A stretch of DNA of 64,000 nt from Candidatus Bathyarchaeota archaeon (GTDB lineage: Archaea > Thermoproteota > Bathyarchaeia > TCS64). The position numbers and the translations under genes are program-made. Below the pieces are notes generated by a model. It saw nothing but the letters and a program-made list of their open reading frames with translations. It had not been told where the DNA came from and searched no databases. The stretch lies in NCBI GenBank assembly GCA_043826455.1, contig JBDRQD010000048.1, positions 96,001-160,000 on the forward strand. The letters run 5' to 3'. This document shows positions 33,718-48,187 of this stretch, piece by piece (position 1 is the stretch's first letter; each line of letters opens with the position of its first letter).

Positions 33718-34761
33718 TTATCCCAGAACGTAGCTGAATCTGGGGACGTTTTCTATGCCGCCTTCGGTGCGGAGGTCGGTGGTTTCATCGATGTCTTCGT
33801 CTTCGGTCATGGCTTCCAGGAGCTCGAAGTAGGGGTTCATGGTGTAGACTCCTGTTTTTCTCCAGGTCATCCACTCGTTGCTGAGGACGCCGTGGACGCT
33901 GGCCCAGCCTTCCGGGTGGAGCTCGTAGTAGAGCTGGCGGATGTCTTTGCGGCCTTCTTCTCGTAGGGTCTCCATGATCATGCGTCTGGCCTGGAACACG
34001 TTTATGTGTAGCTGTGGGACGTTGCGGTCCTGGTCCATGGGGTGCGTCTCCACGGCTGTGCGGGTGAGGCGTATTACGCTGTTCTTGGGTGGCTGGTATA
34101 CTCGGTCCATGTAGACGGCCATGTCGCGGAGGCCTCGGCGGCTGCTGACGAACATGGCCTCGTTCTCGCCTAGGGCGAGGTAGCAGGGCTGGTGCCAGTT
34201 GCAGATGGTTATTGTTTCGGGTTCGTCGGTGTGGATGGCTGCCAGGAGGAAGAAGCCTTCCAGCTTGGGTGCTATGGCTTGGAAGGCCTGGACCATGTTT
34301 TTACCGGTGGCGAGGGCGTCGCCTAGCATGTGGACGGCTACCTCGCTGTCGGTGATGTCGTCCACCTTCCCGCTGTGGCTCTTGAACTTGTGGGTCTTCT
34401 CCAGCTCCTTCCAGAGGTCCCGGTAGTTGGTGATGGTGCCGTTGTGCATCAGGGCGAGTTTGCCGTCGTCGCTGGTGAAGGGGTGGGCGTTCTCGTCCAG
34501 GTTGTAGTCGGGGTTGTCCCGGGCGTTGTCGCTGTACCTGCTGTGGGCGATGGCGCAGGTGCCCTTAACCTTGGTTATGTTGGGCTTGGCCTTCATGACG
34601 TGGGCGACGGGGCCGGCGCCCTTGACCACTGTGATTTTGCCTCCGTTGACGGCGGCGATGCCTGTGGCGTGTCCGCCGTAGAGGGCCTCCTGGTACTCCA
34701 GGGCGTCCAGGAGTAGGGGGGCGACGGGGCGTCTGCCCGTGTAGGCTGCTAGCTGGCACAT
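33718..34761 (-). CDS. class II (Ntn) glutamine amidotransferase domain protein, paralog A
   Basis: Cys2 (MCQLAAY), AHSR, NAHPF, MHNG, TDSEV. Confidence 0.85.
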   Translation of the reverse strand: MCQLAAYTGRRPVAPLLLDALEYQEALYGGHATGIAAVNGGKITVVKGAGPVAHVMKAKPNITKVKGTCAIAHSRYSDNARDNPDYNLDENAHPFTSDDGKLALMHNGTITNYRDLWKELEKTHKFKSHSGKVDDITDSEVAVHMLGDALATGKNMVQAFQAIAPKLEGFFLLAAIHTDEPETITICNWHQPCYLALGENEAMFVSSRRGLRDMAVYMDRVYQPPKNSVIRLTRTAVETHPMDQDRNVPQLHINVFQARRMIMETLREEGRKDIRQLYYELHPEGWASVHGVLSNEWMTWRKTGVYTMNPYFELLEAMTEDEDIDETTDLRTEGGIENVPRFSYVLG

Positions 34762-37737: not shown

Positions 37738-38769
37738 CTAGAGGCCCCACAGGACCCTGGGGACGGTGACGCCTCCCTCCGTCCTGTGCTTGACACTGCG
37801 CCTGATCCTGCCCCAACGGGCAAGCTGCTCCAGGGGCTCGAAGAGGTCGTTGGCGTCGCCGTAGCCCAGCCTTACCAGCGTCCTCCAGGCGTCCTGTTCG
37901 ACGCCGTAGGCTTCGCCGTAGCCTTTTCTGAGGAGGGGGATGAGGAGGTCGTAGCTGTCCAGCTCGCCCTTCTCCTCTAGTAGCCTCTTGACGTGGCTCT
38001 CGAAGATGGCGATGTCTAGGGTGAGGTCGGGGAAGCTTCTCCCGGCGTCCAGCTTGGTTATCTCTGCGTCTCCGGGGGTCAGCTTTATGAGGCTGTTGCT
38101 GGGGGCCCTGAAGACGTTGAACGCGTCTCTGAGGTGGCTGAAGCCGACCCTGCTGCTGGCGAACATGGACTCCCCGTCCCCGACTCCCAGGTAGCAGGGC
38201 TGGTTCCAGTTGGCTATGTAGACGGCGTTGGGCTCGCTGCTGGTCACGGCCCCCAGGAGGACCATGCCGGTGAGGCTGTTAGCTGTTGCGCGGAGCGCCT
38301 CCGCGAAGGCGGCGTCCTCCTTCACCTTGTCGCTGAGCATGTGGACCGCGACCTCGCTGTCGGTGATGTAGTTCAGCTCCTCCACCAGGCTCTCGAAGAC
38401 GTGACTCTTCTCCAGCCTCCTCCAGTGCTCCTCGAAGTTGCTGATTACTCCGTTGTGCATCAGCACAGCGGACCCGTCCTCGGTGAGCCAGGGGTGGGCG
38501 TTCTGAGCCAGGTTGCAGCGGCTGTCCTTGAGGGCGGCGGCGCTGTGCCTGCTGTGGGCTATGCCCGTGGACCCCTTCAGTGAAGCTATCTCTGTCTTCT
38601 TGACCACCTCGTCCCCGGGGCCGTTGTCCTTGATCAAACGTATCTTTCGGCGGTGGATGGTGGCTAGGTCGGTGGCGTGGGCCCCCAGGTACCCTTCCTG
38701 CAGTCGAAGGGACTCCAGGAGGATGGGGGCGGCGTCTCTGCTTCCTACGTAGGCTGCGAGCTGGCACAT
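37738..38769 (-). CDS. class II (Ntn) glutamine amidotransferase domain protein, paralog B
   Basis: MCQLAAY, AHSR, NAHPW, MHNG, TDSEV; colinear with 33718-34761. Confidence 0.85.
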   Translation of the reverse strand: MCQLAAYVGSRDAAPILLESLRLQEGYLGAHATDLATIHRRKIRLIKDNGPGDEVVKKTEIASLKGSTGIAHSRHSAAALKDSRCNLAQNAHPWLTEDGSAVLMHNGVISNFEEHWRRLEKSHVFESLVEELNYITDSEVAVHMLSDKVKEDAAFAEALRATANSLTGMVLLGAVTSSEPNAVYIANWNQPCYLGVGDGESMFASSRVGFSHLRDAFNVFRAPSNSLIKLTPGDAEITKLDAGRSFPDLTLDIAIFESHVKRLLEEKGELDSYDLLIPLLRKGYGEAYGVEQDAWRTLVRLGYGDANDLFEPLEQLARWGRIRRSVKHRTEGGVTVPRVLWGL

Positions 38770-39519: not shown

Positions 39520-40017
39520 TTACTCCAGGGTGATCCAGCCCTTCTCTATGGCGGTGATGCCGGTGCGGGCCGCCTCTATTATGCCTATGTGCTTGACCTC
39601 CCTCATGAACTCGGTGATCTCGTTCACGGAGCCGGTGACCTCGGCTATTATGGTGTCCGGCTTTATGTCCAGTATCTGGCCCTTGTAGCGGTTGATGGTG
39701 GCCAGAGCCTCCTCCTGGGCCATGGGGTCAGCGGTGCTCAGCTTCACCAGGGCCAGGTCCCGCTGGACGGTGCGCAGCGGGTCCAGGCGCTTCACCTTGA
39801 TGACGTCCACCATCTTCTCTATCTGCTCGACGAGCTTGGTGATCTCGTGGGCGTCTCCGCGGACCGTGATGGTGATCCGGGTGGTGTCCACGTCCTCGCC
39901 GGCGATGGCGGTGATGCTGTGGATGTTGAAGCCCTTGCGCCTGAAGTTGTTGCTGATGTTGAAGAGCACGCCGGGCTTGTTCTCCACCATGAGGCTGATA
40001 ACGTTTAGGGGCGTCAC
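39520..40017 (-). CDS. ilvH: acetolactate synthase small (regulatory) subunit, copy 2
   Basis: VENKPGVL..GFNIHSIT ACT domain, ARTGITAI. Confidence 0.9.
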   Translation of the reverse strand: MTPLNVISLMVENKPGVLFNISNNFRRKGFNIHSITAIAGEDVDTTRITITVRGDAHEITKLVEQIEKMVDVIKVKRLDPLRTVQRDLALVKLSTADPMAQEEALATINRYKGQILDIKPDTIIAEVTGSVNEITEFMREVKHIGIIEAARTGITAIEKGWITLE

Positions 40018-41702
40018 GGTAGATCATCCGTCAATATGTCCTTTAAACCCATCCCTGGGGGGATCATGGGGTACACGTTCTCCTCGGGGTCTATGGGCAC
40101 CTCTATCACCGTGGTGTAGTCCGCCGCAGCGGCTCTCCTCAGCTCCGTGTTCAGCTCCTTCATGGTCTCCGTCTTGACGCCGTGGGCTCCGTAGGTCTTG
40201 ACAAGCTCCGTGAAGTCCAAGGTGTAATCCCTTTTCACGGCCGAGTATCTGCCCCCCATGAAGAGGCGCTGCCACTGGGCCACCATGCCCAGCATCCTGT
40301 TGTTGAGCACCACCACCACTATGGGCAGGTCCTCGTCCACGGCTACCGCCAGGTTGTTCTCCGTCATGGCGAAGCTGCCGTCCCCGCTTATGTTCAGCAC
40401 CACCCTGTCGGGTCTGGCCGCCTTGGCGCCTATGGCTGCGGGGGTCCCCCACCCCATGGTGCCCAGGCCGCCGGAGGTGAGGAAGGTGCCGGGCTCGTAG
40501 ACGTCGTAGTGGAGGGCCGCCAGCATCTGGTGCTGGCCCACGTCGGTGGTCACCAAGGCGTCCCCGGGGAGGGCGCGTCTGATGGCCTTGATGACTGCGG
40601 GACCCGTTATCCCGTTGGCGTACTCCGGCACCTCGTAGCTGCGCCTGAACTCCTCTATCTTGTGGGCCCACTCGCCGTTGCCTCCCTCGGCCCTCCTCAG
40701 GGCCCTGATCTGTTCCACCAGGCCCCTGATGCAGGGCTTGGCGTCTCCCCAGACCTTGATGACGCTCTCCACGTTCTTGTCTATCTCGCTGCGGTCAATG
40801 TCCATGTGGATGATCCTGGCGCCTGGGGCGAACCCGGCCAGGGCCCCGGTGGTCCTGTCACTGAACCTGCTGCCCACCACCAGGAGCACGTCCGCGTCGG
40901 GCACTAGGTAGTTGGCCTCCGCCCTGCCGTGCATCCCCAGGAGCCCCAGGCTCAGGGGGTGGTTGCTGGGTATGGAGCCCTTGCCCATGAGGCTGGTGGC
41001 CGTGGGCGCCATGAGCAGCTCAGCCAGCTCGGTCAGCTCCCTGCCTGCCCCGGCGCTCACCACCCCACCGCCCGCCACTATGACGGGCTGCCTGGCCTCA
41101 GAGAGTACCTTGGCCGCCCACTCCAGCTCCGTGGGGTCCGGCTGTAACCTGGGCCTGTAGCCGGGGAAACTCACCTCGGCGTCGAAGTCCATGTCCGCGG
41201 ACTCTGTGGTGACGTTCTTGGGCAAGTCCACCAGCACGGCCCCCTTCCTGCCCGTGTTAGCCACATACATGGCCGCCTTCACGGCCCAGGGTATGCGCCC
41301 GGGCTCCCTCACCTGGTGGTTCCACTTGGTGATGCTGGCGGTGACGCCGATGATGTCCACCTCCTGGAAGGCGTCGGTGCCCACCATGCTCATGCTCACC
41401 TGGCCTGTGAAGGCCACCAGGGGGCTGCTGTCCAGCTGGGCCGTGGCGACGCCTGTGACTATGTTGGTGGCGCCGGGTCCGCTGGTCACCTGGACCACGC
41501 CGGGCCGCCCGGAGGCCCTGGCGTAGCCGTCGGCCATGTGGGCGCTGCCCTGCTCGTGGACGCCCGGCACGTACCTCATGTCGGTGTTCAGCATCTCGTC
41601 GCATATGGGTATCAGGGCCGCGCCCGTGATACCGAATACGTGTGTAACTCCCTCCTTCTCCAGGGCCCTGACGTAGGCCCTGGCTCCTGTCATCTCAGTC
41701 AT
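40014..41702 (-). CDS. ilvB: acetolactate synthase large subunit, copy 2
   Basis: HEQGSAHMADGYAR, TSGPGATN, GTDAFQE, SGGLGTMG, GDGSF..NN TPP motif. Confidence 0.95.
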   Translation of the reverse strand: MTEMTGARAYVRALEKEGVTHVFGITGAALIPICDEMLNTDMRYVPGVHEQGSAHMADGYARASGRPGVVQVTSGPGATNIVTGVATAQLDSSPLVAFTGQVSMSMVGTDAFQEVDIIGVTASITKWNHQVREPGRIPWAVKAAMYVANTGRKGAVLVDLPKNVTTESADMDFDAEVSFPGYRPRLQPDPTELEWAAKVLSEARQPVIVAGGGVVSAGAGRELTELAELLMAPTATSLMGKGSIPSNHPLSLGLLGMHGRAEANYLVPDADVLLVVGSRFSDRTTGALAGFAPGARIIHMDIDRSEIDKNVESVIKVWGDAKPCIRGLVEQIRALRRAEGGNGEWAHKIEEFRRSYEVPEYANGITGPAVIKAIRRALPGDALVTTDVGQHQMLAALHYDVYEPGTFLTSGGLGTMGWGTPAAIGAKAARPDRVVLNISGDGSFAMTENNLAVAVDEDLPIVVVVLNNRMLGMVAQWQRLFMGGRYSAVKRDYTLDFTELVKTYGAHGVKTETMKELNTELRRAAAADYTTVIEVPIDPEENVYPMIPPGMGLKDILTDDLP

Positions 41703-41788
41703 GTTTGGCTGCCTCCCACTCCCGCCTCACCTTGAAGGGCTGGGCGGGCACGTTAGTAGAAGTTTTACGTTTGGTTTCTCTGCGGGGT

Positions 41789-41812
41789 CTACCTAAGAAT
41801 ACGATACCCCAT
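41789..41812 (-). CDS. putative leader peptide uORF2 (MGYRILR) of ilvB copy 2
   Basis: GGAGGGG SD inside uORF1, TGA-ATG junction, positional homolog at 46627-46653. Confidence 0.55.
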   Translation of the reverse strand: MGYRILR

Positions 41813-41857
41813 TCAGCTCTGCCCCTCCGCTGGGGGCCCGACAAAACGATACCCCAT
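41813..41857 (-). CDS. putative leader peptide uORF1 (MGYRFVGPPAEGQS) of ilvB copy 2
   Basis: GAGGAG SD 7 nt upstream; homolog at 46654-46695. Confidence 0.55.
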   Translation of the reverse strand: MGYRFVGPPAEGQS

Positions 41858-41903
41858 TTTCAGTCTCCTCGTACCGTTCGTAATGTTGGATGAAGGCTCA
41901 CCT

Positions 41904-41911
41904 AATAAAAA
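41904..41911 (-). promoter_or_regulatory. TATA box of ilvB copy 2 leader
   Basis: CTTTTTATT conserved at the same offset in both ilvB leaders. Confidence 0.65.
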
Positions 41912-41943
41912 GGTTGTCAGTAACGCTTGTTGCATACGAGCGG

Positions 41944-42420
41944 CTAGGGCGGGAATAGGGGCACAAACTTGTAGGTATCGCTGAAGTCTATGCGGTTCTC
42001 CCCCAGCATGGTCTCTATCCTCATGGCGCCCTTGAACTCCCACTCCCAGACCCGGCTCGTCCGGGCAGCCTGTATGTGGGTGCCGCTGGTGGGTGGCAGC
42101 GTCAAGGTTCTCTCCACTATCTGGGGCGTCCCCCCCACCACGGTTATTGGGCCGGCTATGGTGTCCGTGGTCAGGGCCACGCCGTTGAGCATGACGCTGT
42201 AGGGCGTCTCCAGGACGGTGACGCGGACGCCCCGCGGGTTGGTGTACTTGAAGCTGAGGTACATTGTGGAGTCGGTGGGGGTGAACCCCATGATCTGGAC
42301 CTCCACATCCGTGTACATGGCCGACTTCACGTAGCCCCAGTAGTCCAGGGCCACGGCCGCCACTACGATGAGCACCAGCCCGAGGGCTATGAAGGCGGGC
42401 AGTTTCTTGCGCTCAGTCAT
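41944..42420 (-). CDS. membrane-anchored LEA type 2-like protein
   Basis: N-terminal TM; YTNPRG..YSVMLNG beta-sandwich pattern. Confidence 0.6.
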   Translation of the reverse strand: MTERKKLPAFIALGLVLIVVAAVALDYWGYVKSAMYTDVEVQIMGFTPTDSTMYLSFKYTNPRGVRVTVLETPYSVMLNGVALTTDTIAGPITVVGGTPQIVERTLTLPPTSGTHIQAARTSRVWEWEFKGAMRIETMLGENRIDFSDTYKFVPLFPP

Positions 42421-42487
42421 CGATGAATGTGGGGGCTCATGGCGAATAAAAGTGTGGCTTGTTTCAAATCACGTGTTATTTCAAGCA

Positions 42488-43237
42488 CTAGCTGAGCTTC
42501 TTGAAAACATATATTGCCCATCCCTGTGCGTCTCGTCCTTCCTCCAAGTACGCGTTCTTATATCCCAGAATCTTTGAGAGAAGCTCCTCGTTGTCAGGGT
42601 CGTCGGGGTTCTCAGTCAAGTGTTGCTCAACTGCCAGCCACTGGAGGCTCTCATAGTGATCCCAGTCATCCTCGTCGCTCATGATGGTGTAAACACACCT
42701 CATACCCATGTCCTCACCAACCCGTATGTTCTCGAGGTGGCTTCCGCAGTCCTCTTTCTTCATCTTCTGGGACTCAAGATACTCGTCACTCGGCTCCCTC
42801 ATCCAGAAGGGTTCGCCGACGACAACCCAGCCACCGGGGGCAGTCATCTCTGAGAGCGTCTTTAAGGTCCCTCTGTGGCCGCCGTAGACCCAGCTCGCGC
42901 CGATGCAGCTAGCTAAACGGAACTTCTCACAGTTTCTAGGCTTATAGTCCGCTCCATCCATCTCCAAGAAATCCAGGTCCGCCTCAGGCACCCGTCCCTG
43001 TTTCTTTTCTCTACAGTAACGGATACAGAACGGTGACTTGTCTACGCCGACCCCTGATACGTCGTACAGCTCAGCGAGCCTGACGAGGAACTCACCCTTA
43101 CCGCACGCGATGTCTAGAACACGGTCCTTCTTCTTCAAGGGAAGTACATCGCATAGCCTGTAGAATTTCTCCCTATTCATGGGGTTGCAGACGAGGTGCT
43201 TCTTATGGGTGATGTCGAAGAACTTCCAGCGGTCCAT
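42488..43237 (-). CDS. class I SAM-dependent methyltransferase
   Basis: VLDIACGKGE, GVGVD, SCIGASWVYGG, GEPFW. Confidence 0.88.
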   Translation of the reverse strand: MDRWKFFDITHKKHLVCNPMNREKFYRLCDVLPLKKKDRVLDIACGKGEFLVRLAELYDVSGVGVDKSPFCIRYCREKKQGRVPEADLDFLEMDGADYKPRNCEKFRLASCIGASWVYGGHRGTLKTLSEMTAPGGWVVVGEPFWMREPSDEYLESQKMKKEDCGSHLENIRVGEDMGMRCVYTIMSDEDDWDHYESLQWLAVEQHLTENPDDPDNEELLSKILGYKNAYLEEGRDAQGWAIYVFKKLS

Positions 43238-43345
43238 GCTTCATCAGCGAGGTCTATCGTTTAAAATAGTTACGTGAACACTGCGGGGGCACGTTAAACT
43301 ACGCTTTTGTACAACAAATAGGGAAATGAAGAGAATTGAGGGCGC

Positions 43346-44344
43346 CTACTTCTCCAATCCGCTCATCCTGCGGACCTGACGCCCGACCTTCTCGATCTCC
43401 AGGGCGTCGCACTCCGCCATGAGCTCCTCGAACTTCTTGGCCCCCGCCTTGCTCTCAGCGATCCAGGCCTTGGCGAAGCTGCCGTCACGGACCGCCTTCA
43501 GCGCCTCCCGCATGTTGGCCTCAACATGATCATCAACGATCACTGGGCCCACGGTCATGCCTCCCCACTTGGCGGTGTCGCTCACGGCCCGGTACATGCC
43601 TCCGATGCCGCTCTTGTATATGAGGTCCACTATGAGCTTCAGCTCGTTGCACACCTCGAAGTACGCCAGTTCAGGCGGGTACCCGGCCTCCGTAAGCACC
43701 TTGAAGCCGCGCCTGATGAGCTGGTCAACGCCTCCGCAGAGGACGGCCTGCTCGCCGAAGAGGTCCGACTCGGTCTCGTTCTTGTAGGTGGTCTCGATGA
43801 CGCCCGCCCGGCCGCTGCCCAGGGCCTTGGCTACGGCCAGGGCCTTCTTGAGGGCCTGGCCTGAGGCGTCCTGGTGGACCGCCACCAGTGCGGGGACCCC
43901 GAACCCGGCCTCGTACTGGCGCCTCATCTCGGGGCCTGGGCTCTTGGGGGCCACCATGATGACATCCACGTCCTTTGGCGGCTTAATCTCCCCGAAGTGG
44001 ATGTTGAACCCGTGGGCGAACTGGAGGGCCTTGCCCGGCGTCATGGCCAGGGCCACCTCCTCCTTGTAGACGCTAGGCTGCGCCATGTCCGGCATCAGCA
44101 TCAGCACCACGTCGCCCCTCTGGGCGGCCTCCAGGTGGGTCACGGGCTTGAACCCGTCCTCCTGGGCCCGCTTCCAGCTCTTCCCTCCGGGCCTGAGCCC
44201 CACCACTACGTTTACGCCGCTGTCCCTCATGTTGAGGGCCTGGGCTCTACCCTGGCTCCCGTAGCCTAGGACGGCCACGGTCTTTCCCTTCAAGACTGAC
44301 TCGTCTATGTCCTTGTCGTGGTAAACCTTCACCAATCTATTCAC
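43346..44344 (-). CDS. ilvC: ketol-acid reductoisomerase
   Basis: [44 protein letters not shown]. Confidence 0.97.
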
Positions 44345-44830
44345 CTACAGTTTTAGCCGCCCCTTCTCCAGGGCGGTGACTCCCGTCCTCGACATCTCTA
44401 CGACGCCGACGCTCTTAACGTAATCCAGGAACTGGTCCAGCTCCTCGGGCGTCCCGCTCACCTCAGCCATGATGTTGTCCTCGTCTATGTCTAGGACCAG
44501 GCCGTGCTGGTTGTTGATGAGGCGCAGGGCGTCTTCCCGGGCCATGGGGTCCCTGGTACTCAGCTTCACCAGCAGCATCTCCCGCCGCACAATACGCAGC
44601 GGGTCCAGGCGCTTCACCTTCACCACCTCCACCATCTTGTCCAGCTGCTCCAGGAGGTTGTTCAGGGTCCTGGGGTCAGCCTCCACGGTGATGGTCATCC
44701 TGCTGTACCTGGAGTCCTCCAGGGCCCCCACGGTTATGCTGTCGATGTTGAAGCCCCGGCGCCTGAACAGGTTGCTCACGTTGAAGAGGACCCCCGGCTG
44801 GTTCTCCACCAGGAAGCTGACGGTGTGCAC
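44345..44830 (-). CDS. ilvH: acetolactate synthase small (regulatory) subunit, copy 1
   Basis: VENQPGVL..RRGFNIDSITVG, SRTGVTAL. Confidence 0.93.
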   Translation of the reverse strand: MHTVSFLVENQPGVLFNVSNLFRRRGFNIDSITVGALEDSRYSRMTITVEADPRTLNNLLEQLDKMVEVVKVKRLDPLRIVRREMLLVKLSTRDPMAREDALRLINNQHGLVLDIDEDNIMAEVSGTPEELDQFLDYVKSVGVVEMSRTGVTALEKGRLKL

Positions 44831-46519
44831 CTAGTCGGCCTCCATGAGGGTGTCCTTCAGCCCCATCCCCGGGGGCACCATGGGCATCACGTTCTCCTCG
44901 GGGTCGATGGGCACGTCGATGACAGTGGGCACGTCGGCCTTCATGGCCCTCCGCACCGCGGCCCTGAACTCGTCGTAGGAGGCCACCCTGACGCCCTCGG
45001 CCCCGTAGGCGCCGGCCAGCTTAACGAAGTCCGGGTTGCCCTTCAGCTTCACCGCCGAGTACCTGCGGTTGTAGAAGAGGCGCTGCCACTGGGCCACCAT
45101 GCCCAGCACGTTGTTGTTCAGCACCACCACTATGACGGGGAGCTCCTCCTCCACCGCCGTTGCCAGCCCGTTCTCCGTCATGCCGAAGCTGCCGTCCCCG
45201 GCGATGTCCACCACCGGGACCCCCGGCTTGGCCGCCTTGGCCCCGATGGCTGCGGGGAAACCCCACCCCATGGTTCCTAGGCCGCCGCTGGTGAAGAAAG
45301 TTCGGGGCATGTACGCGTCGAAGTGGAGGGCCGCCCACATCTGGTTCTGGCCCACCTCCGTGGTGACTATGGCGTCCCTGGGCAGCTCCTGCCGCAGGGC
45401 CCTGATGACCTTGGGGGCCCGCAGGTAGGGGGGCCTCTCCTCGCCGTTTTCACCCATGTCGCACCTGAGCTCCCCTATGCGTTTGGTCCACTCGGGGCTG
45501 GTCTTGACCGTGCGAAGCACCTTCACCCTGTCCAGGAGGCCCCTGAGGGCCAGCCCGGCGTCGCCCACCACCTTGGTCAATGTCTCTACGTTCTTATCGA
45601 TCTCGCTGCGGTCGATGTCTATGTGGATGACCTTGGTGTTGGGGGCGAACTCGCTGATCTTGCCGGTGGTCCTGTCGCTGAAGCGTGACCCCACCACCAG
45701 GAGCACGTCGGACTTGGGGACCATCATGTTGGCCTCCATGGTGCCGTGCATCCCGCAAAGGCCCAAGCTCAGGGGATGGTCGCTGGGTATGGCCCCCTTG
45801 CCCATGAGGCTGGTGGCCGTGGGCGCCAGCAGGAACTCGGCCAGGGCCGTAAGCTCACCGCTGGCCCCAGCCGCTATGACGCCGCCCCCGGCCATGATGA
45901 TGGGCCTCTCGGCCTCAGCCAGTATCTTGGCGGCCCAGTCCAGCTCCTCGGGGCTGGGCGCCTTCGGCGGCGAGTAACCTCTGAAGCTCACCTCTTCCGG
46001 GAACACCATCTCAGCTGACTCGGTGGTGCAGTCCTTGGGTATGTCCACCAGGACGGCCCCCTTCCTGCCCGTGTCGGCCACGTAGAAGGCCCTCTTCACG
46101 GCCACAGGAATCTCCTCCGGGCTCGTCACCGGGATGTTGTACTTGGTGACGCTGGCCGAGACCCCTATTATGTCGCACTCCTGGAAAGCGTCGGTCCCTA
46201 TCACAGGCCTGTTCACCTGGCCCGTGAAGGCTACCACGGGGCTGCTGTCGATCTGAGCAGTGGCCAGGCCCGTGACTAGGTTAGTGGCACCGGGCCCGCT
46301 GGTGGCCATGCAGACTCCCACCTTGTTGAGGGCCCGTGCGTAGCCGTCGGCCATGTGGGCGGCGCCCTGCTCGTGGCGCGCCAGGATGAACCTCATGTCG
46401 CTGTTGAGCAGCTCGTCGCATATGGGGATCAGTGAGCCGCCGCTGATGCCGAAGATGTGCCTGGTGCCCTCCCGCTCCAGGGCCTTGACGAAGGCGCGGG
46501 CCCCGGTCATCTCAGTCAT
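44831..46519 (-). CDS. ilvB: acetolactate synthase large subunit, copy 1
   Basis: RHEQGAAHMADGYAR, TSGPGATN, VGQNQMW, GDGSF..NN. Confidence 0.95.
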   Translation of the reverse strand: MTEMTGARAFVKALEREGTRHIFGISGGSLIPICDELLNSDMRFILARHEQGAAHMADGYARALNKVGVCMATSGPGATNLVTGLATAQIDSSPVVAFTGQVNRPVIGTDAFQECDIIGVSASVTKYNIPVTSPEEIPVAVKRAFYVADTGRKGAVLVDIPKDCTTESAEMVFPEEVSFRGYSPPKAPSPEELDWAAKILAEAERPIIMAGGGVIAAGASGELTALAEFLLAPTATSLMGKGAIPSDHPLSLGLCGMHGTMEANMMVPKSDVLLVVGSRFSDRTTGKISEFAPNTKVIHIDIDRSEIDKNVETLTKVVGDAGLALRGLLDRVKVLRTVKTSPEWTKRIGELRCDMGENGEERPPYLRAPKVIRALRQELPRDAIVTTEVGQNQMWAALHFDAYMPRTFFTSGGLGTMGWGFPAAIGAKAAKPGVPVVDIAGDGSFGMTENGLATAVEEELPVIVVVLNNNVLGMVAQWQRLFYNRRYSAVKLKGNPDFVKLAGAYGAEGVRVASYDEFRAAVRRAMKADVPTVIDVPIDPEENVMPMVPPGMGLKDTLMEAD

Positions 46520-46626
46520 GTTTGCTCAGCTCCCATGTTCTGCTGAGGCGGTACCCCGCCGGGGCTCCGCCGTGCTCTGGTTCTCGGACGCTAGAATACT
46601 TCTTAGCGTGGTTCAGTCGTTTGGGT

Positions 46627-46653
46627 CTACGATATAATAAAACGATACCCCAT
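46627..46653 (-). CDS. putative leader peptide uORF2 (MGYRFIIS) of ilvB copy 1
   Basis: GGAGGGGG SD inside uORF1, TAA-ATG junction. Confidence 0.55.
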   Translation of the reverse strand: MGYRFIIS

Positions 46654-46695
46654 TTAAGCCCCCTCCGCCCGGGGGTTGACAAAGCAATTCCCCAT
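46654..46695 (-). CDS. putative leader peptide uORF1 (MGNCFVNPRAEGA) of ilvB copy 1
   Basis: GGAG SD 8 nt upstream; homolog of 41813-41857. Confidence 0.55.
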   Translation of the reverse strand: MGNCFVNPRAEGA

Positions 46696-46741
46696 TTTTT
46701 GGTCTCCAGTTGGGTAGGTAACATGAAGGGCAGGGTGAGCC

Positions 46742-46749
46742 AATAAAAA
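46742..46749 (-). promoter_or_regulatory. TATA box of ilvBHC leader
   Basis: CTTTTTATT, same as in the second ilvB leader. Confidence 0.65.
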
Positions 46750-46966
46750 GCTTACTACTGTACGTATTCATACACACAAGCATAATTCCTGTTCCGAATG
46801 TCTCTCAGGTGAGGCGGGTTCTGGATAAACGACTAAAGTTGGACAGGCCTCATTTTCCCCATATCTTCAACGAGTCCAGGCAGCATTCATGCGGCTCACC
46901 GGGGCCGCGGCTCTCCGCCACCTTAACAGTTATCTCCTCGGCCCCAACAAATACATGAGGAAAGAT

Positions 46967-48187
46967 ATGAGCTACTTCACGCACCTTGATTGCTCGGCCT
47001 GCGGCGAGGAGCACGACGCCACCATCGTCCAGACCGTGTGCAAGAAATGTGGAAAACCTCTCCTGGCCAGGTACGACCTGGGGAGAGTAGCGGAGGAGGT
47101 GACCAAACGGGAGCTGGTGGGCCGAGAGGCCACCATGTGGAGGTACTGGGAGATGCTCCCCGTCAAGAGCAGGAAGAACGTGGTGAGCCTCGGGGAGGGG
47201 TGGACCCCCCTGACGCCTGCGCCCCGCCTCGGAGAGGAGATCGGGCTACCCGACCTCTTGGTCAAGGACGAGGGCGTCATACCCACGGGCAGCTTCAAGG
47301 CCCGCGGCCTGGCCATGGCCGTGAGCAAAGCCAAGGAACTAGGCATAAAGCGCGTCGCCCTGCCTTCGGCCGGCAACGCCGCCGGCTCCATGGCCGCCTA
47401 CGGGGCCCGCGCCGGGATGGAGGTCTACGTCTTCATGCCCAAGGACGCCCCCAAGGTGAACATGGTGGAGAGCGAGATCGTCGGCGCCAAGGTGGTGCTG
47501 GTGGACGGCTTCATCACCGACGCCGGGAAGCTGGTGAAGGAGGGCATCAGCGAGATGGGCTGGTTCAACGTGACCACCCTGGGCGAGCCCTACAGGATCG
47601 AGGGCAAGAAGACCATGGGCCTGGAGGTGGCCGAGCAGCTCGACTGGCGTCTCCCCGACGTGATAGTGTACCCAACAGGCGGAGGCACGGGCATCATAGG
47701 CATGTGGAAGGTCTTCGACGAGCTGGAGGAGATGGGCTGGATAGGCAGCGAGCGGCCCAGGATGGTGAGCGTCCAGGCCGAGGGCTGCGCCCCCATAGTC
47801 AAGGCCTACAACGAGGGCAAGAAGGAGTCGGAGTACTTCCAGAACGCCAAGACTCTGGCCGCCGGCCTTAGGGTACCCAAGGCCCTGGGCGACTTCCTGA
47901 TACTTAGGGCGGCCAGGGAGAGCGGAGGCACCTGCATAGCCGTCAGCGACGAGGAGATCATGGACAGCGTGGGCCAGATCGGCCGGGCCGAGGGTCTCTT
48001 CGCGTGCCCCGAGGGTGCGGCCACCCTGGCGGCCCTGAAGAAGATGCTGGCGGACGGTCAGGTGGACAGGGACGAGAAGGTGGTCCTCTTCAACACGGGT
48101 TCGGGCCTCAAGTACGTGGATCTGTTCGAGGTGCACGCCTCCGTGGCGGACCCCAGGAAGCCCTTCAACTACCGGAGCCTACTCTGA
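46967..48187 (+). CDS. thrC: threonine synthase
   Basis: N-terminal CxxC..CxxC, SLGEGWTPL, PTGSFKARG, EGKKTMG, PTGGGTG. Confidence 0.88.
   Translation: MSYFTHLDCSACGEEHDATIVQTVCKKCGKPLLARYDLGRVAEEVTKRELVGREATMWRYWEMLPVKSRKNVVSLGEGWTPLTPAPRLGEEIGLPDLLVKDEGVIPTGSFKARGLAMAVSKAKELGIKRVALPSAGNAAGSMAAYGARAGMEVYVFMPKDAPKVNMVESEIVGAKVVLVDGFITDAGKLVKEGISEMGWFNVTTLGEPYRIEGKKTMGLEVAEQLDWRLPDVIVYPTGGGTGIIGMWKVFDELEEMGWIGSERPRMVSVQAEGCAPIVKAYNEGKKESEYFQNAKTLAAGLRVPKALGDFLILRAARESGGTCIAVSDEEIMDSVGQIGRAEGLFACPEGAATLAALKKMLADGQVDRDEKVVLFNTGSGLKYVDLFEVHASVADPRKPFNYRSLL

Follow-up and report, generated by a model that had tools for sequence, protein, structure and literature searches.

The window, namely the whole stretch of 64,000 nucleotides analysed here, contains two acetolactate synthase loci, and each of them is headed by a leader with two upstream open reading frames (uORFs); one leader stands before ilvB1-ilvH-ilvC and the other before ilvB2-ilvH, both on the minus strand (Table 1). 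In the first leader uORF2 abuts the stop of uORF1 and lies in the same frame. The Shine-Dalgarno (SD) duplexes predicted before the two ilvB starts amount to -9.8 and -12.8 kcal/mol. A T-rich box resembling the TATA-like box is found at the same place in relatives, and a weak hint on the promoter comes from the RNA-library contigs, which give no cover above 46735, where a DNA run does. In relatives (85% likeness) such contigs span the region from uORF2 to ilvB (X16 and X17, end 46656) and both uORFs (X18, 46071-46707), though contigs of this kind show neither the transcript nor its level. Elsewhere in the window, the ORF at 46889-48187 is threonine synthase-like in appearance, and two minus-strand ORFs at 33718-34761 and 37738-38769, which we take by motif to be glutamine-amidotransferase-like, are similar to each other and both begin with MCQLAAY.

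Table 1. Genes and leader elements of the two ilvB loci (positions in the window)
Feature	Position	Strand	Remark
ilvB1, acetolactate synthase large subunit	44831..46519	-	TIGR00118 above cut-off
ilvH, downstream of ilvB1	44830-44345	-	TIGR00119 above cut-off
ilvC, downstream of ilvH	44344-43346	-	TIGR00465 above cut-off
ilvB2, second acetolactate synthase large subunit	40014..41702	-	profile match
ilvH, downstream of ilvB2	40017-39520	-	
TATA-like box TTTTTATT	46742..46749	-	about 50 nt before uORF1; putative promoter element
First leader, uORF1 (Val unit)	46654..46695	-	ATG GGG AAT TGC TTT GTC ... TAA (MGNCFVNPRAEGA)
First leader, SD of uORF1	46707-46704	-	GGAG
First leader, predicted +1 shift site of uORF1	46678..46683	-	P-site TTT, A-site sensor codon GTC
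First leader, hairpin behind the sensor codon	46659..46675	-	CCCCC-7-GGGGG; contains the SD of uORF2
First leader, uORF2 (Ile unit)	46627..46653	-	ATG GGG TAT CGT TTT ATT ATA TCG TAG (MGYRFIIS)
First leader, bridge frame (+1)	46512..46679	-	55 codons, no stop, no ATG of its own; TGA 5 nt inside ilvB1
Second leader, uORF1 (Val unit)	41813..41857	-	MGYRFVGPPAEGQS
Second leader, hairpin of uORF1	41837-41821	-	
Second leader, uORF2 (Leu unit)	41789..41812	-	ATG GGG TAT CGT ATT CTT AGG TAG (MGYRILR)
Second leader, bridge frame (+1)	41695..41841	-	48 codons; TGA 5 nt inside ilvB2

The cassette and its sixth codon

Every uORF is built as one and the same cassette, ATG GGG WAT NGY TTT/ATT followed by what we call the sensor codon (codon 6), and each ilvB leader in the window carries two copies of it. 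This genome has six copies of the strict pattern, four in the window, one before valS and one before a gene of the LeuA/CimA synthase family (the labels valS, trpS, cysS and trpE are presumed from sequence motifs). Codon 6 is GTY, ATY or CTY in all 185 units collected, the first unit in L031-L124 being restricted to VTY by the search pattern itself, and the sensor codons all end in U or C. The cognate codons per uORF are mostly one and sometimes two, as in the ATT ATA of the window, with no runs, and the A site of the predicted shift site holds no stop codon. One pattern match (L162) has a Ser codon and no target gene.

The amino acid encoded by codon 6 is Val in 12 of 12 valS units, Ile in 9 of 9 synthase units and Ile in 8 of 8 threonine-dehydratase-like units. 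Before ilvB1 there are 35 Val, 63 Ile and 1 Leu units, arranged as Val then Ile or as Ile twice, and before ilvB2 31 Val and 25 Leu units, arranged as Val then Leu. Tandem units are spaced by 42 or 45 nt in 71 of 71 pairs, for which the tandem search pattern had allowed 33-58. At L029, Val, Leu and Ile units are chained before one ilvB (at -236, -191 and -146), the first two of them fused in frame with no stop between. At L156 (C39:43633, minus strand) a single Val unit stands before valS.

The remainder of the cassette is constrained as well. Codon 5 is TTT in 52 of 54 units found by homology, while TTT makes up only 7% of the Phe codons in this genome; codon 4 varies among Arg, Cys and Ser; and base 10 is never G in the 185 units, where a G would create an ATG in the +1 frame. 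These three patterns point to selection on the nucleotides and not on the peptide. Bases 8-10 form an ATH triplet of the +1 frame in every one of the 185 units. The GGGG ends 6 nt before the P-site TTT, and GGGGUAUC is predicted to form an 8-bp duplex with the 16S tail of this genome (-8.4 kcal/mol) that ends 2 nt before the UUU; the AAT variant, as in uORF1 of the window, would give a weaker duplex in a different register (-6.3 kcal/mol).

A stop-free frame between the uORFs and the genes

Behind codon 5, the +1 frame of 94 distinct ilvB/valS leaders contains no stop in 2734 codons, versus 116 and 158 stops in the other two frames, with L025 and the loci without a reference gene left out of this count. 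Among representatives below 60% identity it is open in 35 of 35, versus 9.0 expected from shuffles; as relatives are not independent, a product of the shuffle probabilities would overstate the case.

This bridge frame ends at the gene. In all four units of the window it is free of stops up to the TGA inside ilvB, and every one of the 27 readable ilvB leaders found by protein homology (omitting L012, L020 and L022, where upstream DNA is lacking) has a unit with its +1 stop exactly 5 nt into ilvB. Counted per unit, 52 of the 54 stop at +5, the two misses being degenerate first units. At L024 a TAG over a TTG start replaces the TGA over ATG, and where the frame of the gene relative to the unit has changed, another stop is used (+7, +10, +1 or +14). 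Over the larger set, which comprises 185 units, all followed by 450 nt of DNA or more since those with less were dropped, the +1 stop falls between -12 and +15 of the start in 165 of 167 units before ilvB1, ilvB2 or valS. The valS units mostly end in a 4-nt overlap, the one in this genome reading TTGA; at L143 the +1 stop lies at +32. Among the neighbouring genes of this genome a stop at +5 is rarer than one at +1 (39 versus 168).

The other frames were tried in the same manner, and for the Val, Ile and Leu units neither the -1 frame nor frame 0 arrives at the gene in any of the 167. A functional bridge peptide is also unlikely, in that its length (27-75 residues) and its sequence both vary widely.

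Unit 1 fails to reach the gene in L017, L018 and L109. Decayed or variant units were noted as unit 1 of L017, L018, L030 and L109 and unit 2 of L009; the types are a unit out of register (TAATG overlap), an ACG start, a GTG CAT variant and a stop in the +1 frame.

Fusion to the LeuA/CimA-family synthase

The LeuA/CimA-family gene is itself the +1 frame of a single Ile unit, the frame 0 of which stops at codon 7-11. In this genome a stop lies 8 nt upstream in the synthase frame, and the DTTLRDG motif is reached without any start codon. Among the fused synthase loci of this order, 10 of 19 have no in-frame ATG, GTG or TTG before that motif. In other families of the class, 19 of the 20 loci fetched are fused to the synthase, 8 of them without a start codon, and the twentieth is coupled to ilvB. 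An in-frame start codon is found somewhere before the motif in 9 of 19 synthase loci of this order and in 11 of 19 of the other families. Comparison with NCBIfam and PDB decided neither for CimA, of the Ile path, nor for LeuA, so the reading of Ile as the cognate amino acid of the synthase is partly assumed. At L155 (C57:59702, minus strand) the fused synthase heads a leuC/leuB-like cluster.

Trp and Cys cassettes in the -1 frame

A separate Trp cassette, GTG YAT CAN NNG GAC TGG, is present in 29 of 30 trpS leaders found by protein homology. From it the -1 frame runs to between -9 and +17 of the start in 29 of 29, whereas the +1 frame does so in 1 and frame 0 in none. The same cassette also joins directly, through its -1 frame, onto a TrpB2-type gene without an in-frame start at 7 of 7 loci, this genome included. 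The Trp cassette was found in 52 of 301 genomes, all within this order. In this genome it lies at C48:75579 (plus strand) before trpS and at C46:111271 (plus strand; L265:472) on the TrpB2-type gene; at both, GAC TGG is accompanied by a CCTCC/GGAGG hairpin whose loop holds the frame-0 stop or lies close to it. The trpS bridge resembles a copy of the TrpB2 N-terminus, and GAC TG GAY in the cassette would also permit a 5-nt hop. Two Trp cassettes stand before trpE, and neither ends at trpE itself: at L213 the -1 frame, open for 113 codons, ends at an intervening ORF, and at L222 it ends at a chain of further short ORFs. These two regions may hide more sensors.

The cysS leaders (L235-L264; in this genome C48:38810, plus strand, which is L236) carry a Cys cassette, NTG AGA CTA TTG TGT, with ATG, CTG or TTG as start, and a frame-0 stop at codon 8-9. 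In 30 of 30 the -1 frame extends as far as the cysS start, and in 2 the +1 frame does; this bridge has only about 20 codons, so chance weighs more here.

In the Trp and Cys cassettes, CTG and GTG lie in the -1 frame at the sensor codon, and the re-pairing options for a slip are poor there. Both facts favour an alternative with the same sensing logic but without any slip, namely that the ribosome, once stalled, releases a peptide of 5 residues and begins anew at a near-cognate codon of the bridge frame, which would be AUC, AUU or AUA at bases 8-10, CUG in Trp units and GUG in Cys units. The invariable ATH at bases 8-10 of the Val, Ile and Leu units would suit it too; but the candidate start then differs in kind and place between the cassettes, codon 5 as TTT or ATT is left unexplained, and the AT is equally explained by pairing with the 16S tail. 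We regard such a restart as unlikely.

The same cassettes bear on the question whether codon 6 is a sensor at all. A constitutive frameshift at a fixed ratio might merely lower expression; frameshifts with a set ratio form a known class in the account of a review (PMC5009743), and the Ile cassette on the synthase, being the class-wide form, could simply have been copied. However, codon 6 tracks the target, with Val before valS, Val plus Leu before ilvB2 and Val-Leu-Ile at L029, and separate cassettes set Trp before trpS and trpB2 and Cys before cysS, which makes a fixed ratio very unlikely.

Secondary structure of the leaders

The original prediction for this locus was a pair of mutually exclusive, covarying hairpins, in which segment 1 (ATGGGG, 46695-46690) pairs with segment 2 (CCCCC, 46675-46671) around an inner stem (TTG-CTTTGT-CAA, 46687-46676), or segment 2 pairs with segment 3 (GGGGG, 46663-46659). 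All these segments are present, and so are the complementary GGGT...TAG ACCC of uORF2, the counterparts in the 41.8-kb leader and the two hairpins described at the ilvB SD. The hairpin of segments 2 and 3 covers the SD of uORF2 as claimed; reading the sequence and the folds confirmed that no U-tract occurs between leaders and genes; and the suggestion that control is likely translational and not by intrinsic termination stands.

The switch itself fared differently. In an alignment of 72 Val units (69 distinct), picked from 78 by omitting near-duplicates and supplemented with the second leader of the window, two-sided changes are absent from every pair of the inner stem, 39 of the 69 distinct units leave the middle pair unpaired, and the covariation score is equalled or passed by 460 of 500 shuffles; the covariation seen between two inner-stem sequences is chance. 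Alternative folds of like energy exist in the 41.8-kb leader (-10.4 versus -10.0 kcal/mol) but not in the 46.7-kb leader (-6.5 versus -10.6 kcal/mol). The outer pairing of GGGG with CCCC is complementary in 63 of 72 Val, 23 of 25 Leu, 32 of 55 ilvB1 Ile and 3 of 9 synthase units, and since the GGGG is invariant, it is silent on covariation. As to a conserved burial of the ilvB SD, openness was 0.48 versus 0.40 in shuffles for 51 ilvB1 leaders and 0.41 versus 0.40 for the SD zone of 31 ilvB2 leaders, and burial of the ilvB/valS SD gave no signal against either shuffles or 120 control genes. No folding beyond shuffles was found in the four uORF-bearing pieces (z of +0.62, +0.89, +1.02 and -0.08); the two pieces adjoining the ilvB start have z of -2.04 and -1.25. 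The Rfam covariance models, run over 41500-47200 of the window, returned three matches with E of 1-2.2, far below the gathering score and none of them in the leaders.

The hairpin of segments 2 and 3, lying behind codon 6, is probably real. It has a mean z of -2.4 to -2.9 per sequence in Val units, in 67 of 71 of these it is more stable than the alternative fold, and variants changed on both sides occur (CCCTC/GAGGG and CCTCC/GGAGG); in the ungapped alignment 81% of its cells are paired, but this lies within the shuffle range. Its stability and its cover over the SD of uORF2 are what a model would want in which stalled ribosomes flip exclusive hairpins at the SDs of uORF2 and ilvB while the frame stays unchanged. 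A ribosome paused on codon 6 would presumably cover the C-run, and of the 24 ilvB2 Leu units lacking a 3' hairpin, 22 are followed by a CCCC that could pair with the GGGG. Nevertheless the inner stem does not covary, the ilvB SD is buried no more than by chance, the hairpin is also found in single valS units without a second uORF, and the synthase units keep the same cassette without the hairpin (z 0.05). What is more, a switch of structure could not produce a synthase or TrpB2 whose gene lacks a start codon, and does not predict zero stops in one frame, so the strongest constraint, a stop-free +1 frame ending on or fused to the downstream gene, would go unexplained. We therefore judge the flipping of hairpins highly improbable.

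A predicted mechanism

From the frames, stops, codons and their conservation, which can be read directly in the DNA, we infer hungry-codon +1 frameshifting with translational coupling, in which tandem units would act as an OR gate; we give this reading a probability of about 0.75. It is the simplest account of an obligatory frame change beside a codon for an amino acid of the pathway. The uORFs would be translated, and when charged tRNA for codon 6 (Val, Ile or Leu) is lacking, the ribosome would pause with tRNA-Phe on UUU, or in most Leu units with tRNA-Ile on AUU. The paused ribosome would slip one base forward, read the stop-free +1 frame and restart on ilvB at its end. With the amino acid plentiful, it would keep frame 0 and stop; after the frame-0 stop of uORF1 it could restart on uORF2, whose start touches that stop, so that the second amino acid would be tested, and at the frame-0 stop of uORF2 it would come off the mRNA some 110 nt ahead of ilvB. 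In archaea, coupling requires the stop to lie no more than about 20 nt from the start (PMC10666635); this agrees with a bridge that ends on the start and equally with the 110-nt gap that frame 0 leaves. Because the +1 frame entered from either unit is one and the same, a shortage of just one of the two amino acids would suffice to turn the operon on, namely ilvB1-ilvH-ilvC when Val or Ile is short and ilvB2-ilvH when Val or Leu is short.

Two further elements may assist. By holding on to the 16S tail, the invariant GGGGUAUC may drive the slip, like the internal SD of prfB, though the predicted pairing is suggestive only. The hairpins may be helpers, slowing the ribosome or stopping uORF2 from starting by itself. 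Against the slip, it must be noted that re-pairing at UUG/UUA leaves a wobble mismatch, and that the move from AUU to UUC leaves a mismatch at the first position.

The T-run at the site (TTTT in CGT TTT) might also invite slippage of RNA polymerase, deleting one base in some transcripts and opening the +1 frame in that way. However, the run is just 3 T in 108 of 185 units (C at base 12) and shorter still in ATT units, the Trp and Cys cassettes have no run, and such slippage would have no link to the sensor codon; RNA-library contigs have no indel at the site, though contigs drop rare variants. Polymerase slippage is thus scarcely credible.

Taking all cassettes together, we lean towards a modular and portable amino-acid control of Bathyarchaeia, in which cassettes of about 18-24 nt turn the shortage of one charged tRNA into a programmed frame change, +1 for Val, Ile and Leu and -1 or a short hop for Trp and Cys, which delivers the ribosome into or onto the regulated gene and can be chained into OR logic, with no described counterpart.

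Relation to known systems

In the bacterial leader-peptide attenuators (ilvGMEDA, ilvBN, leu, trp), cognate codons sense charged tRNA, and control can be multivalent, by Val, Ile and Leu. The leaders described here differ in having one sensor codon per uORF without runs, in lacking a terminator or U-tract, and in that the predicted output is a change of frame and not of transcription. Antizyme has a 3' structure close behind its shift site. It is a metabolite-sensing +1 shift, sensor and effector at once, as outlined in the review (PMC5009743), but its signal is polyamine, a stop codon lies at the site, the host is eukaryotic and there is no coupling to a separate gene.

The closer parallel is with prfB, where, in that review's outline, a short frame-0 ORF has a slow A-site codon as sensor, the P-site tRNA re-pairs at +1, a G-rich internal SD lies 5' of the site and the product is in the +1 frame (PMC5009743). 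In the synthase units the layout is fused in precisely that way, the functional product lying in the +1 frame, while the ilvB and valS units have a bridge that ends at the gene start. The A-site codon is UGA in prfB but here a sense codon for a pathway amino acid, and the site is CUU_U there but UUU_R, AUU_C or UUU_C here. The SD-like GGGG is 6 nt away, compared with 3 nt for the internal SD of prfB (PMC5009743); for bacteria, the review relates a distance of 3 nt to +1 shifts and one of 9-14 nt to -1 shifts (PMC5009743). Tandem units with different sensor codons and an archaeal host complete the differences.

Frameshifting in a leader ORF that brings ribosomes across a spacer and turns the next gene on is recorded in the review for ermC under ketolides (PMC5009743). 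In that case an antibiotic sets off the shift largely regardless of sequence, and in pheL the frameshifting was judged incidental, whereas the alternative frame here is conserved without stops and ends on a start codon. As for termination-reinitiation, in Haloferax and E. coli hardly any coupling is left once stop and start are about 20 nt apart (PMC10666635). Our leaders resemble it in having stop and start within a few bases and an SD before the start, with reinitiation predicted; they differ in that the upstream partner is a frame without a start of its own, to be entered only by a frame change, and in an offset that is mostly +5 or +10 in place of the common 4-nt or 1-nt overlap.

The parent idea, a frameshift as sensor, is already known. 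Concerning hungry-codon frameshifting, its natural use is left open in the 2016 review (PMC5009743), and for archaea a 2021 recoding review lists one shown programmed frameshift, a -1 shift in fucA1 (PMC8211752). A literature search, whose coverage excluded most subscription papers and all bioRxiv supplements, gave no report of this system, nor did it turn up the signal, the coupling by a bridge frame or the tandem logic, which does not prove that these are absent from print.

Distribution and origin

The cassette was found in 169 of 401 genomes of the class and in 69 of 70 of this family, with one match in the backwards control, and outside this order it is nearly always single. As the class-wide form is single and fused to the synthase, the sequences suggest that the Ile-synthase cassette is the old form, from which copies with new sensor codons would have reached ilvB, valS and a threonine dehydratase. 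At L051, L066, L084 and L108, tandem Ile-Ile units stand before a threonine-dehydratase-family gene, with the +1 frame ending 5 nt into its TTG start.

Among the 80 listed of 94 matches to the tandem motif, 76 bear Bathyarchaeia or Bathyarchaeota in the record title and the other four have bacterial titles. These four (L040, L044, L095 and L106) are probably mis-binned archaeal contigs, because the ilvB of L044 is about 97% identical to that of the window.

A genome-wide scan for a uORF plus bridge gave 133 candidates, most of them probably due to chance, from which ilvB, valS, trpS and cysS were taken further; the scan is blind to fused cases and missed trpB2. By eye, no unit was seen before the second LeuA-family gene, ileS, leuS or metG. 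The scan did list a short GTG uORF with an ATT codon at C71:10526 (minus strand), the +1 frame of which ends on the ileS start, and this may be chance. We also noted a dispersed intergenic repeat, GTATCG with an inverted pair TTATCC/GGATAA, at five places: C48:184986 (plus), C48:244110 (minus), C66:25366 (plus), C6:2220 (minus) and C6:9745 (minus).

Significance

If the proposed mechanism is true, archaea would have in it their equivalent of attenuation, hungry-codon frameshifting would for the first time be seen in a productive, programmed role, and the N-termini of CimA/LeuA-family and TrpB2 genes would be wrongly called in many of these genomes, so that gene calls could be corrected. Short synthetic leaders allow sharp tests of it, and a compact amino-acid biosensor would be offered as well. 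For the host class, which consists of very abundant archaea, it would supply a regulatory use of hungry codons together with archaeal +1 recoding of core metabolic genes.
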